A stretch of 46,881 nucleotides of DNA, taken from a virus (taxonomy: Duplodnaviria; Heunggongvirae; Uroviricota; Caudoviricetes). Location: IMG/VR virus record IMGVR_UViG_3300018065_000012. One strand, written 5' to 3'. Each line of letters opens with the position of its first letter. Positions within the stretch are counted from its first letter, which is position 1. The notes under the pieces are model-generated. The model was not told the origin of the DNA. It worked only from the letters and a program-made list of their open reading frames with translations, and searched no databases. This document shows, one piece after another, positions 2,584-39,571 of this stretch. Position numbers and translations under genes: made by a program.

Positions 2584-2658
2584 TTGCGGAGTGGAGAAGT
2601 AGAATCTCGTCTGGCTCATAACCAGAAGGTCGCTGGTGCAATTCCAGCCTCCGCTACC
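2584..2658 (+). tRNA. tRNA-Met(CAU)-like (possibly initiator or Ile2 type); position 1:72 unpaired
   Basis: Cloverleaf by eye: D-stem GAGA/TCTC, anticodon stem TCTGG/CCAGA with loop CUCAUAA, variable AGGTC, T-arm GCTGG-TGCAATT-CCAGC, acceptor GCGGAG/CTCCGC, ends ACCA. The T-loop is non-canonical (G55). Confidence 0.5.
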
Positions 2659-2665
2659 AGACTGA

Positions 2666-2688
2666 CAAGTGGGTTAGTTCCACTTTTT
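2666..2688 (+). terminator. rho-independent terminator-like hairpin (AAGTGG-GTTAGTT-CCACTT + TTTTT)
   Basis: 6-bp stem, 7-nt loop, followed by T5, immediately after the tRNA-Met-like gene. Confidence 0.45.
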
Positions 2689-2689
2689 G

Positions 2690-3062
2690 GTTAGCTCAGT
2701 GCCGATTAATGGCTAAACAGGGAAACCCCGCTGAGCTTTGAAAACAGTTCTCGCTGAAGCCGAAATATCAAAGGGCGCTTTGCGGGACGGGCCTCCGAGA
2801 ACACACGACGCAGTTCTCATGGGAGCCGTGCGAGGACTTAATATTTAAGGTGAGTGAAATGTTTTGTTTTAGATTTGCCGAACAATCTGCCTCGTTACTC
2901 ATGCGAAAGCATGAGCGCGGTATTGCCGCGTCGGGGCGACTTATTTTGTCACCCAGTTTGACAAAACAAGAAGTCGTCCTGAATACGAATGATACCAGTT
3001 GACAAGGTTCGGCGAATGAAGAAAAATGAACGCCGGACCTTGAAAAGTTCGGCGTTTTTTTG
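2690..3062 (+). other. non-coding or structured region of about 370 nt (possible small RNA); an alternative 47-aa ORF lies at 2861-3004
   Basis: No long + ORF. Multiple hairpins: AGCTCAG...CTGAGCT, CTCATGC-GAAA-GCATGAG (GNRA tetraloop), CGCGG-TATTG-CCGCG, TTGTCA...TGACAA. Ends in a strong terminator. An ATG at 2861 with AAGGTGAG SD gives a 47-aa ORF that cannot be excluded. Confidence 0.3.
3030..3062 (+). terminator. rho-independent terminator (AACGCCGGAC...GTTCGGCGTT + T7)
   Basis: GC-rich imperfect inverted repeat followed by TTTTTTT. Confidence 0.6.
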
Positions 3063-3095
3063 TTGGCTAAATATAAAAGGAAGTGGGGGTGCGTC

Positions 3096-3632
3096 ATGAA
3101 GCGGGTTTTACTGCTCGGAAGAAACGGAAGAATCCTTGATGTAGTCTGCTGGAAGGCAGCGATCAATCTGACGTACTTCCGTGGATGCGGAAGGGATGTC
3201 GTGTTCCCGCTTGAATATCATGATGTTGAGGTTCGTTCTCAATATCAGTCTTTCAAGCTTCCGGCGGTTATGATTCTGCTTGGCAACCGTGACCGCTACC
3301 CGAATAGTGACGTGCTTCCGCTGTCCCGTTCAAATGTGTTGCTTCGGGATGAATACACGTGCCAGTACTGCGGAAAGAAATTGTCTTTCACAAGCGGTAC
3401 GATCGACCACGTTTTTCCGCTGTGCAAGGGCGGCACCAATACGTGGAGAAATGTGGTTGCGTGTTGCGAAGACTGTAACAACGAAAAGGATGACTTGAGA
3501 CTGGAACAGTACACGAAGCAGACGGGTAAGAAGCTGAAGAAAAAGCCACGGACTCCAAGCCGTGGGGTGCTGTTCAGGTCTTATGTTGAAAAGGAAGGTT
3601 ACGGCTGTTGGAAACCTTACATCAGCGTGTAA
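3096..3632 (+). CDS. HNH homing endonuclease
   Basis: CQYCGKK ... TIDHVFPLCKGG...N...VACCEDCNNEK: an HNH/zinc-finger nuclease motif. ATG at 3096 with AAGGAAG SD; the ORF-track frame starts at 3060. Confidence 0.8.
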   Translation: MKRVLLLGRNGRILDVVCWKAAINLTYFRGCGRDVVFPLEYHDVEVRSQYQSFKLPAVMILLGNRDRYPNSDVLPLSRSNVLLRDEYTCQYCGKKLSFTSGTIDHVFPLCKGGTNTWRNVVACCEDCNNEKDDLRLEQYTKQTGKKLKKKPRTPSRGVLFRSYVEKEGYGCWKPYISV

Positions 3633-3638
3633 TTTTCC

Positions 3639-3667
3639 TTGAAAATGTTCTTTGACAATTGTATAAC
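3639..3667 (+). promoter_or_regulatory. sigma70-like promoter TTGAAA-N17-TATAAC (copy 2), upstream of tRNA cluster 1
   Basis: TTGAAA 3639-3644, 17-nt spacer, TATAAC 3662-3667. Same motif family as 2526. Confidence 0.55.
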
Positions 3668-3680
3668 GTAATAGCGGAAT

Positions 3681-3757
3681 TGGAGCTGTAGCTCAACTGG
3701 TCAGAGTATCGGACTGTCGATCCGAGGGTTGCGGGTTCGAGTCCCGTCAGCTCCGCC
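3681..3757 (+). tRNA. tRNA-Asp(GUC)
   Basis: Acceptor GGAGCTG/CAGCTCC, D GCTC/GAGT, anticodon stem TCGGA/TCCGA loop CUGUCGA, T-arm GCGGG-TTCGAGT-CCCGT, discriminator G, CCA. Confidence 0.8.
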
Positions 3758-3765
3758 AGATGACA

Positions 3766-3793
3766 ACGCAGTGGGGAATTCCCCACTGCTTTT
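3766..3793 (+). promoter_or_regulatory. inter-tRNA hairpin CAGTGGGG-AATT-CCCCACTG followed by CTTTTGG (processing or terminator-like)
   Basis: Perfect 8-bp stem with a 4-nt loop between two tRNA genes. Confidence 0.4.
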
Positions 3794-3869
3794 GGGCGGT
3801 TAGTTCAGTTGGTAGAACGCATGGATCACAACCATGAGGTCACTGGTTCAAGTCCAGTACCGCCCACCA
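3794..3869 (+). tRNA. tRNA-Val(CAC)
   Basis: Acceptor GGGCGGT/ACCGCCC, D GTTC/GAAC, anticodon stem CATGG/CCATG loop AUCACAA, T-arm ACTGG-TTCAAGT-CCAGT, A73, CCA. Anchored to ORF-track ATG 3834. Confidence 0.8.
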
Positions 3870-3877
3870 GAAACAAA

Positions 3878-3954
3878 CGGAAGGTTAAGGTATTTGATTC
3901 CGAGTCCTTGGTTGAATTATATGCGTTATGCGCCAGCTTTGGGTTGGCCTTCCG
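3878..3954 (+). other. 77-nt element enclosed by a perfect 7-bp helix CGGAAGG/CCTTCCG (structured RNA or degenerate tRNA-like)
   Basis: tRNA-sized unit with an acceptor-like closing helix, but the interior does not fold into a canonical cloverleaf. Confidence 0.25.
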
Positions 3955-3964
3955 TGAATAAAAT

Positions 3965-4036
3965 CCAGCACGCTTCAGTGATGGGATACTTCTCCATTTT
4001 AGGAAAAAAAGCAACCTGTCGCGTTTTTTGGTGCTG
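3965..4036 (+). ncRNA. Bracketed tRNA-array element A (minimal copy of the module-bracketed family)
   Basis: 5' module CCAGCAC-GCTTCAGTG...GATACTTC, 3' module GCGTTTTTTGGTGCTGG. Terminal helix CCAGCAC/GTGCTGG. No tRNA-like insert. Confidence 0.55.
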
Positions 4037-4041
4037 GTTTA

Positions 4042-4117
4042 TGGCCCTGTGATGTAATTGGAAACATGTCAGGTTTTCAGCCTGATTTTTGGGGTTCGAG
4101 TCCCCACAGGGTCACCA
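4042..4117 (+). tRNA. tRNA-Glu(UUC)
   Basis: Acceptor GGCCCTG/CAGGGTC (G2-U71), D ATGT/ACAT, anticodon stem TCAGG/CCTGA loop UUUUCAG, T-arm TGGGG-TTCGAGT-CCCCA, A73, CCA. Confidence 0.8.
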
Positions 4118-4127
4118 AAAAATAATT

Positions 4128-4261
4128 CCAGTACGCTTCAGTGAAGAGATACTTCGACTTGTAATCGAGAGGTTGCGGGTTCGAGTCCCGTCGGTTTGCT
4201 TCGGCAAACTGTAGCTCAATTGGCAGAGCGCTAAATACCTCTTTGCGTTTTTTGGTACTGG
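4128..4261 (+). ncRNA. Bracketed element B carrying a circularly permuted tRNA-Thr(UGU)-like core
   Basis: Order in DNA: 5' module, anticodon arm TTCGA-CUUGUAA-TCGAG, variable AGGTT, T-arm GCGGG-TTCGAGT-CCCGT, acceptor 3' strand CGGTTTG, then C-TTCG-G cap, acceptor 5' strand CAAACTG, TA, D-arm GCTC-AATTGGCA-GAGC, G26, 3' module. The D-arm, anticodon loop and variable loop are identical to the genuine tRNA-Thr(UGU) at 12586. Confidence 0.55.
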
Positions 4262-4269
4262 AATTTTTC

Positions 4270-4346
4270 GGGGATGAAGACGAAGTGGACGAGTCACTGC
4301 CCTGTCACGGCAGAGTAAGCGGGTTCAAGTCCCGTCATTCCCGCCA
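4270..4346 (+). tRNA. tRNA-Asp(GUC), second divergent copy
   Basis: Acceptor GGGGATG/CATTCCC (G4-U69), 3-bp D-stem, anticodon stem CTGCC/GGCAG loop CUGUCAC, T-arm GCGGG-TTCAAGT-CCCGT, G73, CCA. Confidence 0.7.
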
Positions 4347-4355
4347 AGTTTACGT

Positions 4356-4430
4356 TCCGGCGTGGCCCAACGGTAGGGCAGCTGGCTGTTAACCAGTTCA
4401 TTGGAAGTTCGACTCTTCCCGCCGGAGCCA
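4356..4430 (+). tRNA. tRNA-Asn(GUU)
   Basis: Acceptor TCCGGCG/CGCCGGA, D GCCC/GGGC, anticodon stem GCTGG/CCAGT loop CUGUUAA, T-arm GGAAG-TTCGACT-CTTCC, G73, CCA. Confidence 0.8.
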
Positions 4431-4433
4431 TTT

Positions 4434-4520
4434 GCGCAAGTGCTGGAACAGGTAGACAGGCCAGTTTGAGGGACTGGTGTCCGAAAGGGCGTGGGAGTTC
4501 GAATCTCCCCTTGCGCACCA
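4434..4520 (+). tRNA. tRNA-Leu(GAG), class II
   Basis: Acceptor GCGCAAG/CTTGCGC, anticodon stem CCAGT/ACTGG loop UUGAGGG, long variable arm TGTCCGAAAGGGCGT, T-arm GGGAG-TTCGAAT-CTCCC, A73, CCA. Confidence 0.8.
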
Positions 4521-4628
4521 AATAATTTTTTGATAAAGTGCAATAGGAAAGGAGAAACAACAAATGCTTGATCTCACTTGTACCAAAGGGGGTCTGCCAT
4601 GTTAGAGCCTTAACGAAAGGAGCTAAAC

Positions 4629-5018
4629 ATGAGCAGAACCTTCAAGAAGTACCCACGGCACTGGTATAGGCGTCCAAGCGGACGTAAGAGAGCGCTGGTG
4701 AATGGGGTAAGGAAACGGGCTGTGCCTCCCGACCCTTACGATGATATTCACCCCGACAGACAGTGCTTTAGTGCAGACAAAGTTGGTTTGGAGTTGCACA
4801 AGTTGGGATGGAGCAACGAAAAGATTGCCAAGCGTTTGAGTTGGAGATTCAAAGTTCCTTACTTGGTGATTTGGCACAGCATTATCCCCGACAAACCGTT
4901 TGATTGGTGGTGGTCTTGCAAGTGTAAGGAATGCAATGAAAAATACCAAGCTTGGCGGGAGTGGCGCGGAGGAATGCGTCTTTATTCTTGGGATGAGTTG
5001 GCAGTGGAACGCGGCTGA
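4629..5018 (+). CDS. hypothetical protein (basic N-terminus, Trp/Cys-rich)
   Basis: ATG with AAAGGAG SD; 129 aa; no motif recognised. Confidence 0.5.
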   Translation: MSRTFKKYPRHWYRRPSGRKRALVNGVRKRAVPPDPYDDIHPDRQCFSADKVGLELHKLGWSNEKIAKRLSWRFKVPYLVIWHSIIPDKPFDWWWSCKCKECNEKYQAWREWRGGMRLYSWDELAVERG

Positions 5019-5036
5019 GACAAGGAAGAATAGCGG

Positions 5037-5119
5037 TGTGACGAAACTGGTAAACGTGCATGGCTTAGAACCATGTGCCCTTTGTGGGCTTGAGGGTTCG
5101 ACTCCCTTCACCGCTACCA
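5037..5119 (+). tRNA. tRNA-Leu(UAG), class II
   Basis: Acceptor AGCGGTG/CACCGCT, anticodon stem CATGG/CCATG loop CUUAGAA, variable arm TGCCCTTTGTGGGCT, T-arm GAGGG-TTCGACT-CCCTT, A73, CCA. Confidence 0.8.
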
Positions 5120-5135
5120 TTTGAGGAAAGAGCAA

Positions 5136-5894
5136 ATGACAGATATCATTGTTCTGACTCACAACAAGGAAGAGAAAACCTGTCGTTGTTTTGAATCCAT
5201 TGCGTTGAATACAAAAAATTATCGGGTGCTTTGGGTTGACAATGGCTCAGAAGAAGCAAGCATTCAAAAGGTTTTGCCGTTTGCTGAAAAGCTTGAAAAC
5301 TTTCGCTTGATGCGCAACAAGGAAAATGAAGGGTTTTCAAAAGGGGTCAATTGCGCCTTGCGTCTTTTCTTGTTTGACGGATTATCTGATCACCTTATCT
5401 TGCTGAACAATGACGTTGTTGTGACGAAAGGTTGGCTTGATCATTTGATTGCTGCGATGAAGAAATCAGGTTTGGATGCAATTGGCCCAGTGACATCAGA
5501 CAATTGTCAACAAAGCCTTGAAGCATTACGGCCTCAATTGAGTAGAAAATTGCCGGAGTTCACGGACGAAACGACAGAGGAAAAAGCGAGAATATTATAT
5601 GAGGACGCAGGTAGTGCAGTTTATCCGGTGACTTCAATCTTGACTTTTTTCTGTGTGTTGTTTCGCAGGGAAACGGTTGAACAAATCGGGTTGCTTGATG
5701 AAAACATTTTCGCCTACGGTGAAGATAACGATTATTGTGAGCGAATGAAACGCACGGGGAAGAAAATGGGATTAGCTGTTGGAATTTACGTTGAGCATGA
5801 TCACGGCGCAACGGCTCAGTTGTTTGGAGACAGCTGGAAAGAGAAACAAATGAAAAAGGCTTCGGCGTATATCCAGCAGAAATATAATCTTTAG
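5136..5894 (+). CDS. Family 2 glycosyltransferase (GT-A fold)
   Basis: IIVLTHN...VDNGS...LLNNDVVV... and YGEDNDYCERM (DxD/ED motifs typical of GT2). ATG 5136 with GAGGAAAG SD; the ORF-track frame opens at TTG 5121. Confidence 0.7.
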   Translation: MTDIIVLTHNKEEKTCRCFESIALNTKNYRVLWVDNGSEEASIQKVLPFAEKLENFRLMRNKENEGFSKGVNCALRLFLFDGLSDHLILLNNDVVVTKGWLDHLIAAMKKSGLDAIGPVTSDNCQQSLEALRPQLSRKLPEFTDETTEEKARILYEDAGSAVYPVTSILTFFCVLFRRETVEQIGLLDENIFAYGEDNDYCERMKRTGKKMGLAVGIYVEHDHGATAQLFGDSWKEKQMKKASAYIQQKYNL

Positions 5895-5981
5895 GCGTTG
5901 TGGTGAAACTGGCAGACACGCATGATTCAGGGTCATGTTCCCTTTTTGGGAGTGAGGGTTCGACTCCCTCCAACGCCACCA
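5894..5981 (+). tRNA. tRNA-Leu(CAG), class II
   Basis: Acceptor GGCGTTG/CAACGCC, anticodon stem CATGA/TCATG loop UUCAGGG, variable arm TTCCCTTTTTGGGAG, T-arm GAGGG-TTCGACT-CCCTC, A73, CCA. The first G overlaps the upstream stop codon. Confidence 0.8.
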
Positions 5982-5983
5982 TC

Positions 5984-6058
5984 GGCCCTATGGAGTAATC
6001 GGAAACTCACCAGATTCTCAGTCTGGAATTCAGGGTTCGAGTCCCTGTAGGGTCACCA
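5984..6058 (+). tRNA. tRNA-Glu(CUC)
   Basis: Acceptor GGCCCTA/TAGGGTC, D GAGT/ACTC, anticodon stem CCAGA/TCTGG loop UUCUCAG, T-arm CAGGG-TTCGAGT-CCCTG, A73, CCA. Confidence 0.8.
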
Positions 6059-6089
6059 GCTTCGGATTATGAATTGCTTAAAAGATAAA

Positions 6090-6166
6090 GGGCGATTAGC
6101 TCAGCTGGACAGAGCACTTGCTCGACAAGCAAGGGGTCAGTGGTTCGAGTCCACTATCGCCCACCA
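6090..6166 (+). tRNA. tRNA-Val(GAC)
   Basis: Acceptor GGGCGAT/ATCGCCC, D GCTC/GAGC, anticodon stem CTTGC/GCAAG loop UCGACAA (C33 is unusual), T-arm AGTGG-TTCGAGT-CCACT, A73, CCA. Anchored to ORF-track frames 6069/6118. Confidence 0.75.
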
Positions 6167-6177
6167 TTGTAGGAATC

Positions 6178-6255
6178 GGACGCGTAGCTCAGATTGGTCA
6201 GAGCACTTCTCTTACAAGGAAGGGGTCACAGGTTCGAGTCCTGTCGCGTCCACCA
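6178..6255 (+). tRNA. tRNA-Val(UAC)
   Basis: Acceptor GGACGCG/CGCGTCC, D GCTC/GAGC, anticodon stem CTTCT/GGAAG loop CUUACAA, T-arm ACAGG-TTCGAGT-CCTGT, A73, CCA. Confidence 0.8.
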
Positions 6256-6273
6256 AATGAAAGGCGGTGGAAA

Positions 6274-6507
6274 ATGGAAAACAAGGCGCTACCAAAGATC
6301 AAACTACGGGCCGTAAAAGAACCACAAAAAGAAAAGGCTCCAAAGAACACGTATTTGCTCACCATGCGCTTTCCAATCACCGCACTTGACGATGTTGAAG
6401 CGCGCGAACGTGCTTGGAAGCATATGAAGTTTCATAACTTTGTTAAGCTTGATGCAAAGCTTCAACGTGTTCGTGACAAGAAGGCACCGGAGAAAGTAAA
6501 TCTATGA
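6274..6507 (+). CDS. hypothetical protein (77 aa, Lys-rich)
   Basis: ATG 6274 after the tRNA. The ORF-track entry 6118-6507 begins inside tRNA genes, so the shorter start was chosen. Confidence 0.45.
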   Translation: MENKALPKIKLRAVKEPQKEKAPKNTYLLTMRFPITALDDVEARERAWKHMKFHNFVKLDAKLQRVRDKKAPEKVNL

Positions 6508-6932
6508 TTACAGTGACGTGTAATGGCTGTTTTGACGGGTTGCATCCCGGCCACTTGTTTTATCTTGGTTATTGTCGAGCGCAAGGTGACCGTTTGGTCG
6601 TTGGGATCAATTCCGATGAATACATAGCCAACAAGAAAAGAACAAAGCCGTATTTTGATGCTAAGCAACGTAAAGAAGTATTGCTGGCGCTCAACATTGC
6701 TGAAGATGTAATTGTGTTTGATGAACCGAATCCAAACGAATTCATCCGTAAGGTTCATCCGCAAGTGCATTGTACGGGTGAAGAATACGGCTATGAATGT
6801 GCTGAGTCAGTAATTTGTAATGAGCTTGGAATCAAATTGGTATTGGTTCCAAGAACGGCAATATGGTCAACGGGAAGTTTACCGTTGATTGGAATGAAAT
6901 GGGTTGCTGATTTTATGAATAGCGGAAAATGA
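6504..6932 (+). CDS. Nucleotidyltransferase of the HldE/RfaE domain II type (heptose-1-phosphate adenylyltransferase-like or cytidylyltransferase)
   Basis: VTCNGCFDGLHPGHLFYL is the HxGH nucleotidyltransferase signature as in RfaE/HldE and TagD. ATGA overlap with the upstream gene. Confidence 0.7.
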   Translation: MITVTCNGCFDGLHPGHLFYLGYCRAQGDRLVVGINSDEYIANKKRTKPYFDAKQRKEVLLALNIAEDVIVFDEPNPNEFIRKVHPQVHCTGEEYGYECAESVICNELGIKLVLVPRTAIWSTGSLPLIGMKWVADFMNSGK

Positions 6933-6946
6933 ACGTGGAGGGGAAA

Positions 6947-7306
6947 ATGGGCAAAAACTCGCAAGATAAAGGTGATTTGAGCAAGGTTATGATCATAGGT
7001 GCCTTGATGAAGAAAGACAAAAAGGTACTTGATACAATTGGAGAAAATCACAGATTTGATCTTGCGTTTTATGAAGAAGGGACAAGATGTTTCAAAACGG
7101 TTCAATGCAAAACAGGACAGTACAAAAACGGTTGCGTGATTTTTCCTACTTGTAGTGTTGTCAAGAATTCCAAAACTGGAAAACACGAAAGAAGGACTTA
7201 TAAAGGTCAAGTGGACTTTTTTTGGAGTGTATTGTCAAAAGAAAGAAAAGTGTTATCTTGTCCCGGAGAAAATTGCCGGTCAATCTTACACGTACTTAAG
7301 AGTTGA
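6947..7306 (+). CDS. hypothetical protein
   Basis: ATG 6947 with GGAGGGG SD (ORF-track frame from 6929); ends at 7306. Confidence 0.45.
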   Translation: MGKNSQDKGDLSKVMIIGALMKKDKKVLDTIGENHRFDLAFYEEGTRCFKTVQCKTGQYKNGCVIFPTCSVVKNSKTGKHERRTYKGQVDFFWSVLSKERKVLSCPGENCRSILHVLKS

Positions 7307-7363
7307 AAAACCAAAAGTCAAATGCAACAGGATAAACCGAGCTGAAGATTATGAATTATAATC

Positions 7364-7455
7364 GGGGGGATGGCTGAGCGGCTTAAAGCGCACGGTTGCT
7401 AACCGTGTGGGCGTTAGTAGCGTCTCGTGGGTTCGAATCCCACTCCCCCCGCCAT
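7364..7455 (+). tRNA. tRNA-Ser(GCU), class II
   Basis: Acceptor GGGGGGA/TCCCCCC, anticodon stem CACGG/CCGTG loop UUGCUAA, long variable arm, T-arm GTGGG-TTCGAAT-CCCAC, G73, CCA. Confidence 0.8.
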
Positions 7456-7460
7456 TCAAG

Positions 7461-7521
7461 GAGGGCTAAACCAGTGAGGTGTTAAAGCCTCCGCAGGTTC
7501 GAATCCTGTCCCCTCCGCCAC
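7461..7521 (+). pseudogene. 61-nt tRNA-like mini-element (acceptor helix, T-arm and CCA, but no D-arm)
   Basis: GGAGGG(C)...GCAGG-TTCGAAT-CCTGT-CCCCTCC-G-CCA. Interior has a GAGG-UGUUAAAG-CCUC hairpin. Too short for a tRNA. Confidence 0.3.
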
Positions 7522-7542
7522 TTTCAAAGAAAGGAGACAAGT

Positions 7543-7789: not shown

Positions 7790-7803
7790 TATATGAAATT
7801 GAT

Positions 7804-34388: not shown

Positions 34389-34404
34389 ACTTTTTGAATA
34401 AATT

Positions 34405-34513: not shown

Positions 34514-34518
34514 GATTT

Positions 34519-34593: not shown

Positions 34594-34596
34594 TTT

Positions 34597-34673: not shown

Positions 34674-34676
34674 CAC

Positions 34677-34752
34677 GCAGGCGCATGTTCCAAGGCTGGC
34701 GACGGGGATTCCAAATCCTTGTGGGTAGGTTCGATTCCTACCGTCTGCGCCA
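34677..34752 (+). tRNA. tRNA-Trp(CCA), copy 1
   Basis: Acceptor GCAGGCG/CGTCTGC, irregular D-arm, anticodon stem GGGGA/TCCTT loop UUCCAAA, T-arm GTAGG-TTCGATT-CCTAC, G73, CCA. Confidence 0.7.
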
Positions 34753-34755
34753 TAC

Positions 34756-34830
34756 AGGGCCATAGTTTAATTGGTAAAACGGGGGATTCCAAATCCTTTG
34801 ATGCGGGTTCGATTCCTGCTGGCCCTGCCA
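34756..34830 (+). tRNA. tRNA-Trp(CCA), copy 2 (identical anticodon arm, different body, A1-U72)
   Basis: Acceptor AGGGCCA/TGGCCCT, D GTTT/AAAC, anticodon stem GGGGA/TCCTT loop UUCCAAA, T-arm GCGGG-TTCGATT-CCTGC, G73, CCA. Confidence 0.7.
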
Positions 34831-34836
34831 ATCTGT

Positions 34837-34928
34837 GGAGAGTGTTCCCCACGGCAGACTGTAAATCTGTTGCCCATCAGAATAAGTGGGGTGGCGGCGA
34901 ATGGGTTCAATTCCCTCACTCTCCACCA
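34837..34928 (+). tRNA. atypical tRNA-Tyr(GUA)-like, 92 nt: 8-bp acceptor, no canonical D-arm, enlarged variable region (possible pseudo-tRNA)
   Basis: Acceptor GGAGAGTG/CACTCTCC; anticodon arm GCAGA-CUGUAAA-TCTGT; only TT-CCCC-ACG between the acceptor and anticodon stems; GTGGGG in the variable region could pair with CCCC; weak T-stem GGG/CCC; A73, CCA. Confidence 0.4.
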
Positions 34929-34932
34929 TTAA

Positions 34933-35018
34933 GGAGCGGTAGTCTAATTGGTAAGGCAGTGGGCTGTAAACCCACCGGCATTGCGCCATTGGAGGTTCGA
35001 GTCCTCCCCGCTCCACCA
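34933..35018 (+). tRNA. tRNA-Tyr(GUA), class II
   Basis: Acceptor GGAGCGG/CCGCTCC, D GTCT/AGGC, anticodon stem GTGGG/CCCAC loop CUGUAAA, variable arm CGGCATTGCGCCAT, T-arm GGAGG-TTCGAGT-CCTCC, A73, CCA. Confidence 0.8.
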
Positions 35019-35039
35019 TTTTTCTTTTTCAGCAAAAAT

Positions 35040-35061
35040 CTTTTATATTCGGTTGTATAAT
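35040..35061 (+). promoter_or_regulatory. weaker promoter-like site sharing the GGTTGTATAAT -10 element (no good -35)
   Basis: TATAAT 35056-35061 preceded by GGTTG as in the other promoters; the -35 region is CAAAAA. Confidence 0.3.
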
Positions 35062-35083
35062 ATAAGGGTAATTCTCACAGGGG

Positions 35084-35338
35084 ATGAATATGGAAACTCG
35101 GCCAGAAACGGGCAAAATGAAGTTTGGCGACGACTGGTCTGGAATATTCATCCGAGGCGACAATGCTTTCAATTATCATATGCAACTCAAAGAAGTTTTG
35201 AAAGACAATGGCGGTGAATTCGGCATTATTGCGAAACATACAATCCGAGATTTGATTGATCTTTTGGAATCTTGCGAAGAGCATAATGATATCAAACCGC
35301 AAAAATTGAAATCATTCGAGGAATGCCGTTATGAATGA
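35084..35338 (+). CDS. hypothetical protein (84 aa)
   Basis: ORF-track frame; overlaps the dCMP deaminase start by 8 nt. Confidence 0.45.
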   Translation: MNMETRPETGKMKFGDDWSGIFIRGDNAFNYHMQLKEVLKDNGGEFGIIAKHTIRDLIDLLESCEEHNDIKPQKLKSFEECRYE

Positions 35339-35786
35339 TAGACCATCCATTGACCAGACGATGATGGATATTGCAAAAACTTGGTCCTTTCGATCAAGAT
35401 GTTTACGGCGACAAGTGGGTTCAGTAATCGTAAAAGACAAACATGTTTTGACTTCTGGTTATAATGGCCCGCCAAAAGGGTTGCCTCATTGCGATGAATG
35501 TGGTGGTTGTTTGCGGCAAGAAATGGATTTGCCGTCAGGCGAACGTCAAGAACTTTGCAGAGGTTCTCACGCAGAATTGAATGCAATTATTCAAGCGGCA
35601 ATATTTGGGATAAGCGTAAAAGGCGCAACGCTGTATTGCACAAACTTTCCTTGTAACTTTTGTGCCAAAGCAATTGTTCAAGCTGAGATTAAAAAAGTCA
35701 TTTACGAAGATGACTATACGGAAGACGATAACATGGCAAAACAAATGCTTGAACATGTTGGAATTAAAATGGAGAAATTTGAATGA
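35331..35786 (+). CDS. cd: dCMP deaminase (cytidine/deoxycytidylate deaminase family)
   Basis: Zinc-binding HAELNAI and PCNFCAKAI (H[AC]E...PCxxC) motifs; size and context as in T4-type dCMP deaminases. Confidence 0.8.
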   Translation: MNDRPSIDQTMMDIAKTWSFRSRCLRRQVGSVIVKDKHVLTSGYNGPPKGLPHCDECGGCLRQEMDLPSGERQELCRGSHAELNAIIQAAIFGISVKGATLYCTNFPCNFCAKAIVQAEIKKVIYEDDYTEDDNMAKQMLEHVGIKMEKFE

Positions 35787-35962
35787 GCTGGAAAGATTTT
35801 CTTTACGGCGCGGCATCTGTTCTCGACTTGTCTGGTTCAATGGGCAATGCGCAAGTGAATGAAATTTTGCGCAAGTCTGACGCGGAAGCATTGAGGTCAG
35901 ATTGGGAAGCAGTTGGACAAGACATGTGGAAGGCGATTGAACAATCTGAAGATGTCGGGTGA
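35783..35962 (+). CDS. small acidic hypothetical protein (59 aa), translationally coupled to cd
   Basis: ATGA overlap with the cd stop; MSWKDFLYGAASVLDLSGSMGNAQVNEILRKSDAEALRSDWEAVGQDMWKAIEQSEDVG*. The stop lies inside the next tRNA. Confidence 0.45.
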   Translation: MSWKDFLYGAASVLDLSGSMGNAQVNEILRKSDAEALRSDWEAVGQDMWKAIEQSEDVG

Positions 35963-36038
35963 GCGCAGCTGGTGCTGTGAGTGGCCTGCAAAGCCATTTG
36001 GCCTTTGGGTCCAACTGGTTCGATTCCAGCATCCGACT
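35954..36038 (+). tRNA. tRNA-Sec-like (8/4 'allo-tRNA' architecture) tRNA with GCA (Cys) anticodon
   Basis: 8-bp acceptor GTCGGGTG/CATCCGAC; 6-bp D-stem CGCAGC/GCTGTG with 4-nt loop TGGT; 6-bp anticodon stem AGTGGC/GCCATT with loop CUGCAAA; long variable arm TGGCCTTTGGGTCCAA; 4-bp T-stem CTGG/CCAG with loop TTCGATT; U73; no encoded CCA. Confidence 0.5.
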
Positions 36039-36056
36039 CTAATTTGGAGAACATGA

Positions 36057-36311
36057 ATGCCAAAAAGAAGTTTCCCGCTCAAGATCAGTTTTGATCATGA
36101 AATTGATCGAGATACGATGTTTTTTCTTGCTGTAAAGTTTGCGAGAGAATATCCAAAAGCAGCGACACAAATAATTGGAGCATTGGAAGGGGAACGGAAA
36201 TATTGCAAGATCAATTGTCCGTTCCCTTTTGTATGTAGTGAGTTTCCTTGCAAAACGCTTTGTTGTAACGCAGACTGCTGCGACAACGGCCACGCTTATA
36301 GGATGAGCTGA
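36057..36311 (+). CDS. hypothetical Cys-rich protein (84 aa)
   Basis: GGAG SD. The C-terminus has CKINCPFPFVCSEFPCKTLCCNADCCDNGH. Confidence 0.45.
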   Translation: MPKRSFPLKISFDHEIDRDTMFFLAVKFAREYPKAATQIIGALEGERKYCKINCPFPFVCSEFPCKTLCCNADCCDNGHAYRMS

Positions 36312-36685
36312 TGCAATACGAACTTGAAAATGGTTACAAGGTTTGGGTGAACGCGAAGACTTACCGCTCGAAATTGAACAAGCAAGTTTGCATCAAATGT
36401 TTGAAACAGTATTGGCCAGATGCAGATTCCGTTTGGGATGTTCAAGCAGAACTGAAATGGGAAGAAGGCAGGTTGTATATTTGTCCTTGTTCTTCTGTTA
36501 ACGGGCGCGATGAAAACCGCAGAGCAGGCCGATACAACGAAGGCCGGTTGATCGAACACGACCCACCGGAAGCTTGCCCATTCAAAACAGAGCATCTTGT
36601 CAGTTGTAATAAACAAGGTTTCATCTATTATAAAAGCCGCATTGAGGAGTATTGCGAAAAGAATTTCAAAAAGGTGAAAAGGTGA
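36311..36685 (+). CDS. hypothetical protein (124 aa, Cys-containing)
   Basis: TGATG overlap with the upstream gene. Confidence 0.5.
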   Translation: MQYELENGYKVWVNAKTYRSKLNKQVCIKCLKQYWPDADSVWDVQAELKWEEGRLYICPCSSVNGRDENRRAGRYNEGRLIEHDPPEACPFKTEHLVSCNKQGFIYYKSRIEEYCEKNFKKVKR

Positions 36686-36873
36686 AGCTGATTGTAAAAT
36701 TTGTCGTCTTGATTGCTGGAAGTTATCTTTGCTATTTGTCTTGGGCTGAGCCAAAAACAATTATTTGGCTGTATGGAAATTATATCATGCCGGTTTTCTT
36801 TGCATGTATTCCGTTTTATGCAGCATGGTGGTGCTATCAAGACTTAAAGAGCGCCCGTAGCTCAGATGGATAG
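36682..36873 (+). CDS. small membrane protein (about 63 aa, two hydrophobic helices)
   Basis: GTG start overlapping the upstream TGA (GTGA). VKLIVKFVVLIAGSYLCYLSW...IMPVFFACIPFYAAWWCY. The 3' end overlaps tRNA-Arg(CCG). The ORF-track frame starts at 36652. Confidence 0.4.
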   Translation: MKLIVKFVVLIAGSYLCYLSWAEPKTIIWLYGNYIMPVFFACIPFYAAWWCYQDLKSARSSDG

Positions 36874-36927
36874 AGCGTCTGCCTCCGGAGCAGAAGGTCA
36901 CAGGTTCGAGTCCTGTCGGGCGTGCCA
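36851..36927 (+). tRNA. tRNA-Arg(CCG)
   Basis: Acceptor GCGCCCG/CGGGCGT, D GCTC/GAGC, anticodon stem TCTGC/GCAGA loop CUCCGGA, T-arm ACAGG-TTCGAGT-CCTGT, G73, CCA. Confidence 0.8.
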
Positions 36928-36946
36928 AACATACGAGGATGAAAGA

Positions 36947-37204
36947 ATGATAATCATGGAGCATGGAAACGTCGATAAACAAGTACCCAATCAAGGCGCG
37001 TGGGATATTCATGTTGCGGGGCAAGAAAAATATCCACTGGTGGTGATCCTTTGTCCCAAATGTCAAAAAGTATCTTGTCTCCGTAATCATACGATTCATC
37101 GCGACGGGACAGTTTCACCAAGCTTGGTCTGTCCAAGAGATGAATGTAATTTTCATGAAATGATCAAGTTGAAAGACTGGAAAGGGTTGCCTCAAAAATT
37201 GTAG
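36947..37204 (+). CDS. small zinc-ribbon-like protein (85 aa)
   Basis: ATG 36947 after GAGGATGAAAGA (the ORF-track frame from 36866 opens inside the tRNA). CPKCQ...CPRDEC. Confidence 0.45.
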   Translation: MIIMEHGNVDKQVPNQGAWDIHVAGQEKYPLVVILCPKCQKVSCLRNHTIHRDGTVSPSLVCPRDECNFHEMIKLKDWKGLPQKL

Positions 37205-37207
37205 TTT

Positions 37208-37283
37208 GGGCCGGTAACTCAATTGGTAGAGAACCGTTCTTATACAGCGGTAGTCGTTGGTTCGAATCCAACCCGGCCTACCA
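37208..37283 (+). tRNA. tRNA-Ile(UAU)
   Basis: Acceptor GGGCCGG/CCGGCCT, D ACTC/GAGA (3 bp), anticodon stem CCGTT/AGCGG loop CUUAUAC, T-arm GTTGG-TTCGAAT-CCAAC, A73, CCA. Anchored to ORF-track TTG 37223. Confidence 0.75.
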
Positions 37284-37304
37284 AATTCAAGATGGAGTGG
37301 AATT

Positions 37305-37559
37305 ATGAAAGAGGGACGCATAAGCAAAGGTGGCGTGGGAAATCCTCCAACAAGACCAAGACCCAAGCCACCAAAGGGACAAGGAGGCTCTCAAAAGTTG
37401 AAAGAAGTTTTGGAAGCCCTTGAATTCTATGCTGATGAAAGCAATTGGAAAAACGGGACGTCAGTTCATTACGAATGGGCGACGTTTGCTGAGTTGGATG
37501 AAGGCAAACGGGCAAGAAAAGCACTTGAAAAATATCGGGGTGTAGGAAAGTCTGGTTAA
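37305..37559 (+). CDS. hypothetical protein (84 aa)
   Basis: ATG 37305 after GGAGTGG (the ORF-track frame starts at 37257 inside the tRNA). The last 24 nt overlap tRNA-Pro(CGG). Confidence 0.4.
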   Translation: MKEGRISKGGVGNPPTRPRPKPPKGQGGSQKLKEVLEALEFYADESNWKNGTSVHYEWATFAELDEGKRARKALEKYRGVGKSG

Positions 37560-37613
37560 TCCGCTACGTTCGGGACGTAGAGATCGCCGGTTCAAATCCG
37601 GCCACCCCGACCA
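37536..37613 (+). tRNA. tRNA-Pro(CGG)
   Basis: Acceptor CGGGGTG/CACCCCG, D GGAA/ATCC (3 bp), anticodon stem CTACG/CGTAG loop UUCGGGA, T-arm GCCGG-TTCAAAT-CCGGC, A73, CCA. Confidence 0.8.
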
Positions 37614-37629
37614 CTTTAGGAAAAGGCTG

Positions 37630-37764
37630 ATGAACGATCCAAAAGCTTATCAATACACAGGCTCATTGAGTGACAAGTTCTTTATTGTGTTGATCATTTT
37701 AGCAATGATTTCTGTTCCTATTTTTATTATAATTGCGTTTTTGTATTGGGTTCCAAGGAGCTAA
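37630..37764 (+). CDS. small single-TM membrane protein (44 aa)
   Basis: AGGAAAAGG SD then ATG 37630. MNDPKAYQYTGSLSDKFFIVLIILAMISVPIFIIIAFLYWVPRS*. The stop lies 1 nt before the next ATG. Confidence 0.4.
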   Translation: MNDPKAYQYTGSLSDKFFIVLIILAMISVPIFIIIAFLYWVPRS

Positions 37765-37765
37765 A

Positions 37766-38008
37766 ATGCTTTACACGGTTGGCGAGACAGAAAAATACGA
37801 GCAATATATAAAAGAGCAAGGCACGATTTCAAAGGCAGTTGGTGGCTCAGTTTGGAGTTCAAAAGAAGCCGCGCAAAAGTATTTGAAAGAAAGAGGGTTG
37901 CTTGGAAAATTTACTGTTTACGGCATTGACGCCGGTTGGAATGATACTGAATATACAGGTAATCCTTGGCGTGATTTGAAAATTGTTGCAAAAATAATTG
38001 AACTTTGA
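37766..38008 (+). CDS. hypothetical protein (80 aa)
   Basis: ATG 37766 after AAGGAG (the ORF-track frame starts at 37733). Confidence 0.5.
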   Translation: MLYTVGETEKYEQYIKEQGTISKAVGGSVWSSKEAAQKYLKERGLLGKFTVYGIDAGWNDTEYTGNPWRDLKIVAKIIEL

Positions 38009-38082
38009 GCGGGTGTAGCTTAATGGTAAAGCTCCAGCCTTCCAAGCTGATCACGTGGGTTCGATTCCCATCGCCCGCTCCA
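38009..38082 (+). tRNA. tRNA-Gly(UCC)
   Basis: Acceptor GCGGGTG/CGCCCGC, D GCTT/AAGC, anticodon stem CCAGC/GCTGA (C27/A43 mismatch) loop CUUCCAA, T-arm GTGGG-TTCGATT-CCCAT, U73, CCA. Confidence 0.7.
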
Positions 38083-38087
38083 TTTAA

Positions 38088-38161
38088 GCGGCTGTAGCTC
38101 AGTGGTAGAGCGCAAGGTTGCCAATCTTGCTACGAGGGTTCGATTCCCTTCAGCCGCTCCA
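38088..38161 (+). tRNA. tRNA-Gly(GCC)
   Basis: Acceptor GCGGCTG/CAGCCGC, D GCTC/GAGC, anticodon stem CAAGG/TCTTG loop UUGCCAA, T-arm GAGGG-TTCGATT-CCCTT, U73, CCA. Confidence 0.8.
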
Positions 38162-38223
38162 AAATTAAAGATGAAACGGAGATATATGATGAGCCAATCA
38201 CCTTTTGTTCGGGGGATTACATC

Positions 38224-38481
38224 ATGGACGCTCCAAAATGCGAACATCTGTTACCATTTTTGCAAGCTCAAACGCGGCTGATAACAAAACATTTGGGCGA
38301 GCATAAATGGTTCCAAAAAATTGAAAGTGAAAATGAAGCAGTTGGAGATTTCATTGAAAAGTTTGGGTGGGTAATGCGAGAATTCTTTTGTGGTTATTGT
38401 TGTGAACATCGTTATGAATGCGACATTGCCATAGAATACGATTTCTTGCCGCCAGAGAGGAAAAAGCAAAATGACCCTTGA
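38224..38481 (+). CDS. hypothetical protein (85 aa, Cys/His-containing)
   Basis: ORF-track frame; a GGGGGA lies upstream. Confidence 0.4.
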   Translation: MDAPKCEHLLPFLQAQTRLITKHLGEHKWFQKIESENEAVGDFIEKFGWVMREFFCGYCCEHRYECDIAIEYDFLPPERKKQNDP

Positions 38482-39274
38482 AGAAGCACGCAAACTTGTT
38501 TTGAAATCATTCAACAAAAGTGATTTCTATTACAACCATCAATCGCCGCATGGCTATACAAACTTCATTGACGGGATGGCGTGGGTTGGTTTATTGTGCG
38601 GCGCATGTCATCTTGTGGATGACAAAGAGTTGGCGGCATTAGCAGAAAACTACTTGAGAATGCTTTTGAAAGTTGGACCGGATGCAAGAAATTATGCGCC
38701 GATGAAAGTAAGAGACGACTGGATCAAATCTGAAACAGCTCCCGGATTTTGGTACCGTAAAAAGCCGCAGTCCTTCGCGGGGCCAGCGGCTTTATTGTTT
38801 GCTATCAACTGCGGCGCAAAATTGGATAACCCCTTCAACATTGAATCACGTGCCAAGTGGATGCGTTTCTTAAATCCATTCTTTGGTTATCTTGTGCGTT
38901 GGTTTCATTGGTTCAGACAGCATATCAATAGTCAGTTTATCGCTCATTTGATTAACGATTCCAAACCGCCAAGCTCAATGCTTTGGTTGTGCGAGGAAAA
39001 TCCTTTTTTCAGCGCTATTGCTGGAATTGAATGCAGTGTTGAATACCCGAAATCATGGAGCCGGTTTCAAAAGTATGAAACAAAAGACGTGGACGATATT
39101 CAACCGCTGAAAAACCGGAAACCATCAGCTTGGATTTTCAGAAGTTGGCCCAAGGCCGAATACACTGGCGCACTTCCTTACGCGGGCAGTGCTTATACGC
39201 CAACGGCAATGGTTGTTGGTGAATATTTGCAACAGCATTTGAGGAAGAAAAATGCCAAAGTACAAGACAGTTGA
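38471..39274 (+). CDS. hypothetical protein (267 aa, Trp/Phe-rich)
   Basis: Overlaps the upstream gene by 11 nt. No motif recognised. Confidence 0.5.
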   Translation: MTLEEARKLVLKSFNKSDFYYNHQSPHGYTNFIDGMAWVGLLCGACHLVDDKELAALAENYLRMLLKVGPDARNYAPMKVRDDWIKSETAPGFWYRKKPQSFAGPAALLFAINCGAKLDNPFNIESRAKWMRFLNPFFGYLVRWFHWFRQHINSQFIAHLINDSKPPSSMLWLCEENPFFSAIAGIECSVEYPKSWSRFQKYETKDVDDIQPLKNRKPSAWIFRSWPKAEYTGALPYAGSAYTPTAMVVGEYLQQHLRKKNAKVQDS

Positions 39275-39491
39275 GGAACTTGCGCAAGCATTCCAAACAG
39301 GTGAGTTTGGAGCAGATGGTCAAGTTATCAAGATTGAATCGGATGACATAAACGCTTCATTGGTTCGGGTAACTTGCGCAGAGGAAAGTCCTGACGAGTT
39401 TGAAATAATGTTCGAAGGATACGTACAAGGCGGTTATACAAAAGTGAAAAACGAGCTTGGGCCGTCTTTTGGAAGAGCGAAAAAAGAATGA
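39252..39491 (+). CDS. hypothetical acidic protein (79 aa)
   Basis: Overlaps the upstream gene by 23 nt. Confidence 0.45.
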   Translation: MPKYKTVEELAQAFQTGEFGADGQVIKIESDDINASLVRVTCAEESPDEFEIMFEGYVQGGYTKVKNELGPSFGRAKKE

Positions 39492-39494
39492 CGT

Positions 39495-39571
39495 CGGGGT
39501 GTGGCTCAGCTTGGTAGAGCGCTTGACTGGGGGTCAAGAGGTCGCTGGTTCAAATCCAGTCACCCCGACCA
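39495..39571 (+). tRNA. tRNA-Pro(GGG)
   Basis: Acceptor CGGGGTG/CACCCCG, D GCTC/GAGC, anticodon stem CTTGA/TCAAG loop CUGGGGG, T-arm GCTGG-TTCAAAT-CCAGT, A73, CCA. Confidence 0.8.

Follow-up and report, generated by a model that had tools for sequence, protein, structure and literature searches.

A tRNA island of a huge tailed phage and a conserved pseudoknot tRNA family represented in it

The viral DNA stretch IMGVR_UViG_3300018065_000012 (46,881 nucleotides, nt; Caudoviricetes), referred to at its full length as the window, contains a large island of transfer RNA (tRNA) genes. The genes were called with ARAGORN and with Rfam at the gathering thresholds (29 bits for RF00005 and 47 bits for RF01852, the selenocysteine (Sec) tRNA model). 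ARAGORN found 47 tRNA genes in 2585-39571, all on the + strand, and none in any of 30 dinucleotide-preserving shuffles of the window. The Rfam matches at threshold numbered 46, with 45 to RF00005 (49.2-76.8 bits) and one to RF01852. When the gene at 34837-34928 was counted, the total was 48 tRNA genes with 44 distinct anticodons for 20 of 20 amino acids. The initial annotation, made from the sequence alone, had estimated about 46 genes covering all 20 amino acids, which agrees well with these counts. Its listed anticodons were all reproduced (Leu five; Ser and Arg four each; Val, Ala, Gly, Pro and Thr three each; Gln, Glu, Lys and Ile two each; CAU twice; Asp twice), and the predictors did not reject a large share of the genes as pseudogenes. 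Of the genes, 32 lie in a first block (2585-13244) and 16 in a second (33892-39571), with about 20.6 kb of tail-fibre-like genes between them. The large tRNA set is real, but it is of a kind already known for huge phages.

The 45 genes that reach at least 29 bits with RF00005 are ordinary bacterial-type tRNAs with an encoded CCA. The other three are atypical: the second tRNA-Trp and second tRNA-Tyr fall below this value, and the tRNA-Cys was claimed by RF01852 instead of RF00005. The 3′ CCA is encoded in every tRNA gene except this tRNA-Cys. The initial annotation had described duplicated Asp, Trp and Tyr genes. The pairs exist; the second Trp and the second Tyr, however, are structurally non-canonical and not ordinary divergent duplicates. 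The sole Cys gene, which the initial annotation did not single out, is structurally non-canonical as well. The atypical genes and their canonical partners are as follows.

34677-34752, + strand: aberrant tRNA-Trp(CCA) (ARAGORN, as 34681-34752; below the Rfam threshold; fold; register from the sequence)
34756-34830, + strand: canonical tRNA-Trp(CCA) (ARAGORN; RF00005, 67.5 bits)
34837-34928, + strand: non-canonical pseudoknot tRNA-Tyr(GUA) (no ARAGORN call; RF01852, 28.9 bits; family model R1, 90 bits; covariation)
34933-35018, + strand: canonical class II tRNA-Tyr(GUA) (ARAGORN; RF00005, 62.5 bits; fold)
35954-36039, + strand: Sec-tRNA-shaped tRNA-Cys(GCA) (ARAGORN, as Cys; RF01852, 60.6 bits; minimum free energy (MFE) fold; sequence)

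In a sensitive Rfam scan, the three RF01852 matches clustered at 34.7-36.0 kb, namely 34677-34748 (CCA, 32.8-37.6 bits), 34836-34925 (GUA, 28.9 bits) and 35953-36038 (GCA, 60.6 bits).

The odd Tyr gene at 34837-34928 is real, though non-canonical. It received no ARAGORN call in bacterial mode, even at lowered thresholds, and its only Rfam match was the sub-threshold one to RF01852. Read directly, the sequence is GGAGAGUG UU CCCCAC G GCAGA CUGUAAA UCUGU U GCC CAUCAGAAUAA GUGGGG U GGC GGC GAA UGGG UUCAAUU CCCU CACUCUCC A CCA. The acceptor stem has 8 base pairs (bp), formed by 34837-44 and 34917-24, and the anticodon stem has 6 bp, formed by 34853-58 and 34866-71, with the loop CUGUAAA. The strand CCCCAC (a, 34847-52) pairs with GUGGGG (a′, 34886-91), and an invariant GG lies at 34893-94. 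The T-stem has four positions, three of which are paired in the window copy, the outermost being U.U, and the 3′ end is A73 followed by CCA. Furthermore, the strand GCC (v, 34872-74) pairs with GGC (v″, 34896-98) and crosses a/a′. Because the v/v″ and a/a′ helices cross, the core is a pseudoknot.

Other readings of this gene were rejected. A 'Tyr' call of ARAGORN in mitochondrial mode (34825-34898) has a different, unsupported fold and different boundaries. In the single-sequence MFE fold, the 5′ strand of the variable region forms a simple hairpin with GUGGGG. This strand switches from GCC to GGC or GAC, whereas GUGGGG is constant, and it covaries with the strand downstream of GGC; hence, the simple hairpin was discarded. 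For an intron or processing reading, the deletion of any contiguous segment restores no cloverleaf, and a group I intron would need a longer element than this one. The archaeal/eukaryotic-type splicing endonuclease is not known from bacterial hosts.

Pattern scans found the same layout in 17 viral and 52 metagenomic contigs. Three of the search patterns were too loose and gave mostly chance matches, which were filtered by a fold descriptor. The scans matched only one of 185,579 species-representative genomes, and this match lay on a 177,804-bp scaffold of a 'metagenome-assembled genome' exactly as long as one viral contig. The family is apparently restricted to phages. It comprises 36 distinct sequences and a Tyr copy on L217 added by the covariance model (about 37 in total), with lengths of 87-96 nt. 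The members scored 83-107 bits with model R1, whereas every ordinary tRNA scored 36 bits or less. The gene at 34837-34928 belongs to this conserved family, according to its score of 90 bits, its a/a′ and v/v″ complementarity, the GG after a′ and N73-CCA, and it is the sole member in the window. In the relative phage L029, the layout occurs twice in tandem, one copy having GCA with a U discriminator and the other GUA with an A discriminator.

The pairing of the family was evaluated on an alignment in which N padding keeps every row in the same register. Paired cells made up 96.7% overall compared with 83.3% in shuffles, and pairs with changes on both sides numbered 18 compared with 9.3 expected. 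None of 500 shuffles reached the observed pairing values, and slid registers fell to 35-54%. The acceptor stem (8 of 8 pairs), the anticodon stem and a/a′ were 100% paired, the T-stem was 97.9% paired, and double changes occurred at all 8 acceptor pairs. The a/a′ helix (CCYCAY with GUGRGG) was paired in 36 of 36 sequences, with a C-G to U-A change in L029c and L176, several wobble changes, and CUCCAC/GUGGAG in L217. The v/v″ helix joins the 3 nt after the anticodon stem to the 3 nt after the invariant GGC. Its core was 100% paired and took the forms GCC/GGC, GGC/GCC, GAC/GUC and CCC/GGG, one position being CG in 26 sequences, GC in 9 and AU in 1; an optional fourth pair was A-U, U-A, C-G or G-C. 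Moreover, RNAalifold returned the same acceptor stem, a/a′ helix and T-stem from a MAFFT alignment with no structure given. Its anticodon stem had 6 bp, and the extra pair covaried (UA/GU/CG/AU).

Several features of a tRNA are kept across the family: the 7-nt anticodon loop CUGUAAM with U33 and A37, the T-loop UUCRAWU, the GG and the CCA. The acceptor and the anticodon stem are only 9 nt apart, and the partner strand lies 3′ of the anticodon arm. The branch of an 8-bp acceptor and a 4-bp T-stem (8/4) is found in this family and also in the Cys gene at 35954-36039, where both the MFE fold and the alignment to RF01852 give it. The long D-stem with a tetraloop of the Sec-like D hairpin is absent from the family. 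The discriminator tracks the anticodon, in that GUA members always have A73 and GCA members, which form two lineages, always have U73; the seryl-identity combination of G73 or U73 with a long variable arm does not describe them. A73 is a determinant for tyrosyl-tRNA synthetase (TyrRS). U73 and GCA are the main determinants for cysteinyl-tRNA synthetase (CysRS) (PMC5389517).

The members also stand in the company of other tRNA genes. At 73 of 76 member-bearing loci, ARAGORN-called tRNAs were present as well, and the members lie a few nt from their neighbours. The arrays L178 (32 tRNAs) and L166 (27 tRNAs) cover 19 amino acids with Tyr alone missing, and the odd element stands at the array edge. 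In the window, the canonical tRNA-Tyr at 34933-35018 adjoins the odd one, and L217 has a Tyr/Cys pair with no other tRNA nearby. Twelve strain-level contigs were identical over 5.9 kb of the tRNA region except for one single-nucleotide polymorphism (SNP). It lies at window position 34864 (L022 position 8554) and is an A-to-C change at position 37 of the odd Tyr anticodon loop (CUGUAAA to CUGUACA).

The Cys gene at 35954-36039, the only tRNA-Cys in the window, is atypical in a different way. Its RF01852 score of 60.6 bits is above the threshold of 47, whereas its R1 score of 20.7 bits places it outside the pseudoknot family. The gene has an 8-bp acceptor stem, a 6-bp D-stem with a 4-nt loop (UGGU), a 6-bp anticodon stem with the loop CUGCAAA, a long variable arm and a 4-bp T-stem. 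The discriminator T (U73) follows the acceptor 3′ strand CATCCGAC. The MFE fold had an energy of -37.6 kcal/mol (z -2.7). A bacterial tRNA-Sec has UCA, G73 and a 13-bp branch (8/5), whereas this gene has GCA, U73 and 8/4. We infer that it decodes UGY as Cys. Matches resembling SelA, SelB or SelD were absent from the Pfam/PHROG results on scanned open reading frames (ORFs) and the precomputed Pfam of called genes in the window and its 10-kb flanks.

Bacterial tRNA-Cys is normally class I, and in other phage arrays, the ordinary tRNA-Cys genes fold as 7/5 cloverleaves. However, tRNAs with a long variable arm, U73 and GCA, many of them without CCA, are present on at least 45 viral contigs, and in some the acceptor stem is nearly identical to that of 35954-36039. 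Long-armed tRNA-Cys thus seems widespread in phages. Class II-shaped (7/5) GCA/U73 tRNAs, many without CCA, were observed at L330 7424-7511, L342 4726-4811, L292 1179-1264 and at least 40 other places, and no description of such viral tRNAs was found in the literature searched. Directly 3′ of the Cys gene in the window lie two small Cys-rich ORFs (36057-36311 and 36311-36685). The first encodes 84 aa with 8 Cys and the second 124 aa with 7 Cys, compared with 1.4% Cys overall, and neither has a Pfam match.

For the second Trp, the register 34677-34752 is better than that of the ARAGORN call. Its fold is a 7/5 cloverleaf with C8, a D-stem with three G.U pairs, a 6-bp anticodon stem, a 3-nt variable loop and G73-CCA. 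An 8/5 Sec-type stem (34676-34749) was rejected because no discriminator is left before the CCA. At the matching place, L029 has only a 3′ tRNA fragment beside the canonical Trp. The second Trp may be a decaying duplicate.

The remaining 43 genes of the island, all with ARAGORN calls and RF00005 scores, are listed below.

2585-2659, + strand: tRNA-Met(CAU), initiator-like, with a U1xU72 mismatch, A11:U24 and the unusual T-loop UGCAAUU (57.5 bits; sequence)
3682-3758, + strand: tRNA-Asp(GUC) copy 1 (71.3 bits)
3794-3869, + strand: tRNA-Val(CAC) (70.8 bits)
4043-4117, + strand: tRNA-Glu(UUC) (58.5 bits)
4270-4346, + strand: tRNA-Asp(GUC) copy 2, divergent, differing in the D-arm and at anticodon-loop positions 37-38 (49.8 bits; sequence)
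4356-4430, + strand: tRNA-Asn(GUU) (64.3 bits)
4434-4520, + strand: tRNA-Leu(GAG) (49.2 bits)
5032-5119, + strand: tRNA-Leu(UAG) (57.3 bits)
5894-5981, + strand: tRNA-Leu(CAG) (50.6 bits)
5984-6058, + strand: tRNA-Glu(CUC) (60.5 bits)
6090-6166, + strand: tRNA-Val(GAC) (65 bits)
6178-6255, + strand: tRNA-Val(UAC) (69.6 bits)
7364-7454, + strand: tRNA-Ser(GCU) (59.7 bits)
7699-7789, + strand: tRNA-Ser(UGA) (60.8 bits)
7948-8024, + strand: tRNA-Arg(ACG) (65.2 bits)
8136-8211, + strand: tRNA-His(GUG) (67.3 bits)
8430-8520, + strand: tRNA-Ser(CGA) (51.6 bits)
9015-9104, + strand: tRNA-Ser(GGA) (53.5 bits)
9119-9194, + strand: tRNA-Gln(CUG) (64.7 bits)
9200-9274, + strand: tRNA-Gln(UUG) (57.7 bits)
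9277-9354, + strand: tRNA-Lys(UUU) (73.2 bits)
10323-10399, + strand: tRNA-Ile(GAU) (76.8 bits)
10604-10681, + strand: tRNA-Lys(CUU) (53.9 bits)
10687-10763, + strand: tRNA-Arg(CCU) (64.3 bits)
11192-11267, + strand: tRNA-Ala(GGC) (68.7 bits)
11273-11349, + strand: tRNA-Arg(UCU) (63.8 bits)
11546-11623, + strand: tRNA(CAU), elongator Met or Ile2 (65.5 bits)
11629-11716, + strand: tRNA-Leu(UAA) (56.3 bits)
12295-12381, + strand: tRNA-Leu(CAA) (57.4 bits)
12586-12661, + strand: tRNA-Thr(UGU) (67.8 bits)
13053-13127, + strand: tRNA-Thr(GGU) (73.7 bits)
13168-13244, + strand: tRNA-Thr(CGU), closing block 1 (60.2 bits)
33892-33967, + strand: tRNA-Ala(CGC), opening block 2 (68 bits)
33976-34052, + strand: tRNA-Pro(UGG) (68.9 bits)
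34055-34130, + strand: tRNA-Ala(UGC) (67.3 bits)
34520-34593, + strand: tRNA-Gly(CCC) (53.5 bits)
34597-34673, + strand: tRNA-Phe(GAA) (66.5 bits)
36851-36927, + strand: tRNA-Arg(CCG) (67.7 bits)
37208-37283, + strand: tRNA-Ile(UAU) (60.2 bits)
37536-37613, + strand: tRNA-Pro(CGG) (64.1 bits)
38009-38082, + strand: tRNA-Gly(UCC) (67.1 bits)
38088-38161, + strand: tRNA-Gly(GCC) (70.6 bits)
39495-39571, + strand: tRNA-Pro(GGG), the final tRNA gene (66.4 bits)

According to this list, 61 of 61 sense codons are decodable by a Watson-Crick anticodon or by ordinary G34/I34 wobble. The U-ending codons without their own anticodon are read by G34, and CGA and CGC are read by the ACG (inosine) tRNA. The tRNA-Met(CAU) at 2585 is initiator-like, its 1x72 mismatch and A11:U24 being hallmarks of initiator tRNAs. 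By decoding rules, a tRNA-Ile(UAU) reads AUA, which makes up 13% of the Ile codons, without lysidine synthesis by the host; a canonical tRNA-Ile(UAU) occurs in both related phages (window 37208-37283, L029 9392-9470). Codon usage was counted over 37 window ORFs (9,665 codons). The codons matching C34 tRNAs were common (ACG 35% of Thr, CCG 32% of Pro, TTG 42% of Leu, AAG 43% of Lys and GCG 23% of Ala), and tRNAs were also present for rare codons (CTA 2% and CTC 6% of Leu, CCC 10% of Pro, GGG 13%). Since rarely used codons are served too, a full replacement of the tRNA set fits better than a selective codon compensation. The 37 ORFs end in TGA (17), TAA (14) and TAG (6). Stop-codon recoding in the window was rejected, as each of the three stops ends ORFs and code 11 leaves the long ORFs uninterrupted.

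The source of the window is a huge tailed phage whose genome measures 338 kb or more. Proteins identical to those of the window recur on metagenomic contigs of up to 338,319 bp, which is beyond the 200 kb of a huge phage, and structural hallmark genes are present. A major head protein (phrog_2522, E=8e-54) is encoded about 6 kb upstream of the window on a 182-kb contig. On the same contig, the 10 kb upstream of the window contain an anaerobic ribonucleotide reductase NrdD/NrdG (L222 5033-7649) and no further tRNAs. The host is probably an anaerobe. The window ORFs matched phage tail needle, tail fibre and virion protein families (Pfam/PHROG), as well as glycosyltransferases, sugar epimerases, a dCMP deaminase and an HNH endonuclease. 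Neither an aminoacyl-tRNA synthetase nor a CCA-adding enzyme, a tRNA ligase or kinase, or a tRNA nuclease was seen in the window and its 10-kb flanks. The 20-kb structural block had no nucleotide-level relative among 50,697 phage records (megablast), and the 267-aa neighbour protein had no relative in IMG/VR. The IMG/VR loci found via the dCMP deaminase were 29-44% identical, belonged to unrelated phages and were set aside. The homologues of the 84-aa neighbour protein were all on contigs shorter than 2 kb, so they gave no gene context. In L029, the neighbouring protein is 68% identical to that of the window.

The island was compared with known systems. Huge-phage arrays are alike in coming from large tailed phages and in holding dozens of tRNAs distinct from the host types; complete huge-phage genomes have up to 67 tRNAs, the number rising with genome length (PMC7162821). 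That survey was based on tRNAscan-SE and described no non-canonical architectures, whereas in the window every sense codon is shown to be covered and three genes are atypical. Phage (8/4) tRNA-Ser and tRNA-His and allo-tRNAs were reported in phage tRNA clusters as sub-threshold matches of the tRNA-Sec model, and no Tyr species was reported among the 8/4 tRNAs there (PMC5389517). The allo-tRNAs resemble the family in their 12-bp 8/4 branch, long variable arm and stack of a 6-bp D-type and a 6-bp anticodon-type stem. Their D hairpin is normal, with a long stem and a tetraloop, and their discriminator is mostly G73 or U73, which is a Ser identity. By contrast, the family has no D hairpin, its putative second D strand and GG lie in the variable-arm loop, and it combines A73 with GUA or U73 with GCA. 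The D-arm-lacking mitochondrial tRNAs, such as metazoan mt-tRNA-Ser(AGY) (PMC7609411), also have no D hairpin. They are shortened with an unpaired connector, whereas the phage family exceeds the normal length (87-96 nt) and its connector is fully paired with the relocated strand; the family is thus not of the D-armless mitochondrial type.

The selC* tRNA-Cys, known from anaerobic bacteria with selenocysteine machinery (PMC5389517), is the closest likeness of 35954-36039, sharing its Sec-like shape, 8-bp acceptor, 4-bp T-stem, U73 and GCA. The phage gene differs in that it belongs to the tRNA array of a phage and that neither the window nor its 10-kb flanks showed a sel gene; the bulged A51a of selC* was not seen in it. 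With regard to defence, the tRNA-Tyr depletion by retron-Eco7 is countered by the tRNA-Tyr of phage T5 (PMC11555353), phage tRNAs with anticodon-loop variants act against tRNA-targeting defence (PMC10264068), and T5 tRNA-Lys acts against PARIS (PMC11464382). These precedents offer a rationale for divergent copies beside canonical ones, and the odd Tyr is alike in being a phage tRNA-Tyr in a tRNA-rich region that differs from the host type. The known anti-defence tRNAs, however, are canonical cloverleaves acting by abundance or by a few loop changes, whereas here the whole core is rebuilt. A full-text literature search with incomplete coverage found no description of a D-hairpin-less pseudoknot tRNA or of an 8/4 Tyr species.

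The best explanation is a huge-phage tRNA island that includes functional re-architected tRNAs, with a probability of about 0.72. The 48 co-oriented genes would supply one decoder per sense codon and an initiator-like tRNA. In the odd Tyr, strand a would run into the anticodon stem and give a 12-bp stack (6+6), the size of the D and anticodon stack of tRNA-Sec and allo-tRNAs. By polarity, a would correspond to the normal 3′ D strand and a′ to the 5′ D strand, with the 5′ half of the D-arm relocated into the variable-arm loop. The GG after a′ would take the role of G18G19 and contact the conserved UUC of the T-loop at the elbow, and the L-shape would be kept. The odd tRNA would then be charged by the host TyrRS (A73, GUA) or CysRS (GCA/U73) and work in translation; we infer from its sequence features that the family is a working tRNA. 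In the least certain step, the full set would keep the phage translating when host tRNAs are depleted or cleaved. The reading of host independence and defence evasion is plausible, and its link to defence leans on the published precedents. That the rebuilt bodies of the Tyr and Cys tRNAs may escape host factors recognising a normal tRNA body is tentative, with the odds somewhat against it.

A number of points weigh against this explanation. Since a′ (GTGRGG), GGC, the T-loop and the distance to CCA were prescribed by the search patterns, the constancy of these columns and the 8/4 spacing are partly by construction; free tests come only from the a strand, the 5′ strand of the acceptor, v and the L217 copy, which the model found. 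The v″ register was chosen from few options, which favours pairing. The sequences are related, most of them coming from one freshwater clade, and the counts are not independent events. Furthermore, 14 of the 26 loci with at least 15 tRNAs also carry a canonical tRNA-Tyr, so the odd form is not simply a replacement. The steric compatibility of the L-shape with a 1-nt a′-GGC link and a v helix of 3-5 bp is a matter of argument. For the Cys gene, the long variable arm and U73 could attract seryl-tRNA synthetase (SerRS) (PMC5389517), which makes the amino acid that it carries uncertain. The Sec-like Cys and the odd Trp could be compared only with the divergent relative L029, which has neither, and the strain-level contigs, being identical apart from one SNP, are uninformative on their constraint. 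Moreover, no defence-related or tRNA-repair gene was found nearby.

The rival explanations differ in how much of the island they account for. If the three atypical genes were functionless decaying duplicates, the low Rfam score of the odd Trp, its C8 and G.U-rich D-stem, the mere 3′ fragment in L029 and the Cys gene as the only one without an encoded CCA would be expected. This view is excluded for the odd Tyr, however, where about 37 sequences keep five helices by compensatory changes together with identity-matched discriminators. The Sec-like Cys is a clean and complete 8/4 Sec-type cloverleaf and the only Cys decoder in an otherwise complete set; decay of all three genes is unlikely. It is less likely still that the island merely tops up codons used more by the phage than by its host, the atypical genes being incidental. 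The G-ending codons served by C34 tRNAs are indeed common, but tRNAs are also present for hardly used codons, an initiator-like tRNA is included, the set is complete and not selective, and the conserved non-canonical architecture is left unexplained.

Two further proposals accept that the odd genes are functional and assign them other tasks. As non-translational tRNA mimics (nuclease decoys, primers or donors for a non-ribosomal transferase), the odd Tyr and Cys would explain why half of the large arrays also hold a canonical tRNA-Tyr, often adjacent, and why the L217 pair stands without other tRNAs; some allo-tRNAs are charged yet unused in translation (PMC5389517). A mimic is nevertheless improbable, given that the anticodon loop (U33, A37), T-loop, GG and CCA are all kept, together with the 12-bp acceptor branch, which is what EF-Tu recognises (PMC5389517), and that the odd element fills the sole missing amino-acid slot in L178 and L166. 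The atypical tRNAs could also be purpose-built for the UAN/UGN boxes, for UAR/UGA read-through or competition with release factors. CCA, GUA and GCA are exactly the three sense anticodons sharing boxes with stops, the pseudoknot family has only GUA and GCA, and all three genes have tRNA-Sec-like traits. In addition, the Hirsh suppressor, an E. coli tRNA-Trp with an altered D-arm, reads UGA with its CCA anticodon. The stop codons of the window nonetheless terminate the ORFs as described above, and no read-through candidates were found. A single mutation separates GCA from GUA, which means that descent can account for the small range of anticodons in the family, and Sec-shaped tRNA-Cys was already known outside phages (PMC5389517); this proposal is very unlikely. 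Hardly better is the chance of its broader form, in which a translationally active pseudoknot tRNA not seen in cells, together with the Sec-shaped Cys and the aberrant Trp, would be dedicated to these boxes for nuclease escape or a balance of sense decoding and termination.

A near-complete set is expected for a huge phage, and the window adds one more well-documented example, with all 61 sense codons served, a UAU tRNA for AUA and an initiator-like tRNA. The main value lies in a gene that the predictors missed. If the family is charged and used on the ribosome, the L-shape would be buildable with a different strand topology, a natural exception. Censuses of phage tRNAs by tRNAscan-SE and ARAGORN would then systematically under-count, and tRNA-Tyr may be present in arrays from which it seems to be missing. 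Orthogonal tRNA engineering would gain a new scaffold beside the allo-tRNAs, and the family would be a concrete candidate, open to testing, for an escape from tRNA-targeting immunity by structure and not just by the anticodon loop.

Other features were observed within and around the island. Auxiliary genes among the tRNAs (153-1103, 10766-11188 and 11735-12289) encode a caspase-like peptidase C14, a weakly matched macro-domain protein and a pyruvoyl-dependent arginine decarboxylase. Between the tRNA blocks lie two tandem paralogue arrays (21886-26499 and 26820-30569), with six proteins of about 250-285 aa sharing their N-terminal half and three beta-helix proteins of 411-412 aa. They are preceded by two repeat-rich fibre-like proteins of about 960 aa, one of which (14415-17288) is built of VVDSRV-type repeats. 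Together, the fibre-like and paralogue genes look like a diversified receptor-binding module. At its 3′ end, the window cuts through a very long collagen-like ORF (41491-46881), whose protein measures 1,894 aa on contig L226. The Gly-X-Y repeats of the GxQGxQG type begin after about 220 residues. The last 5 kb of the window owe their 53% GC content and strong purine skew to this repeat gene, within which the 338-kb contig also ends. About 200 nt without an ORF between tRNA-Ile(GAU) and tRNA-Lys(CUU) (10385-10589) gave a weak match to RNase P class A (28 bits, threshold 100, E=3.7e-5). This gap is probably not RNase P and may hold a small RNA.

Further RNAs were noted on the related contigs. 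A tmRNA (RF00023, 118 bits) follows tRNA-Ile(UAU) in L029 (9610-9975; also L031 1284-1649), and none was found in the window. In freshwater arrays with the odd Tyr, ARAGORN called 'tRNA-Ile(UAU)' genes of 90-92 nt with the anticodon at 31-32 (L164 4950-5041, L166 1111-1202, L178 6394-6485, L120 1096-1187 and L181 14429-14518), which are possibly allo-tRNA(UAU)-like species. A GOLLD RNA (RF02032, 202.8 bits) lies within a phage tRNA array at L216 4069-4535, and a tRNA with a CUA anticodon (amber suppressor-type) occurs at L156 4320-4393, about 3.9 kb upstream of the odd Tyr of that locus.

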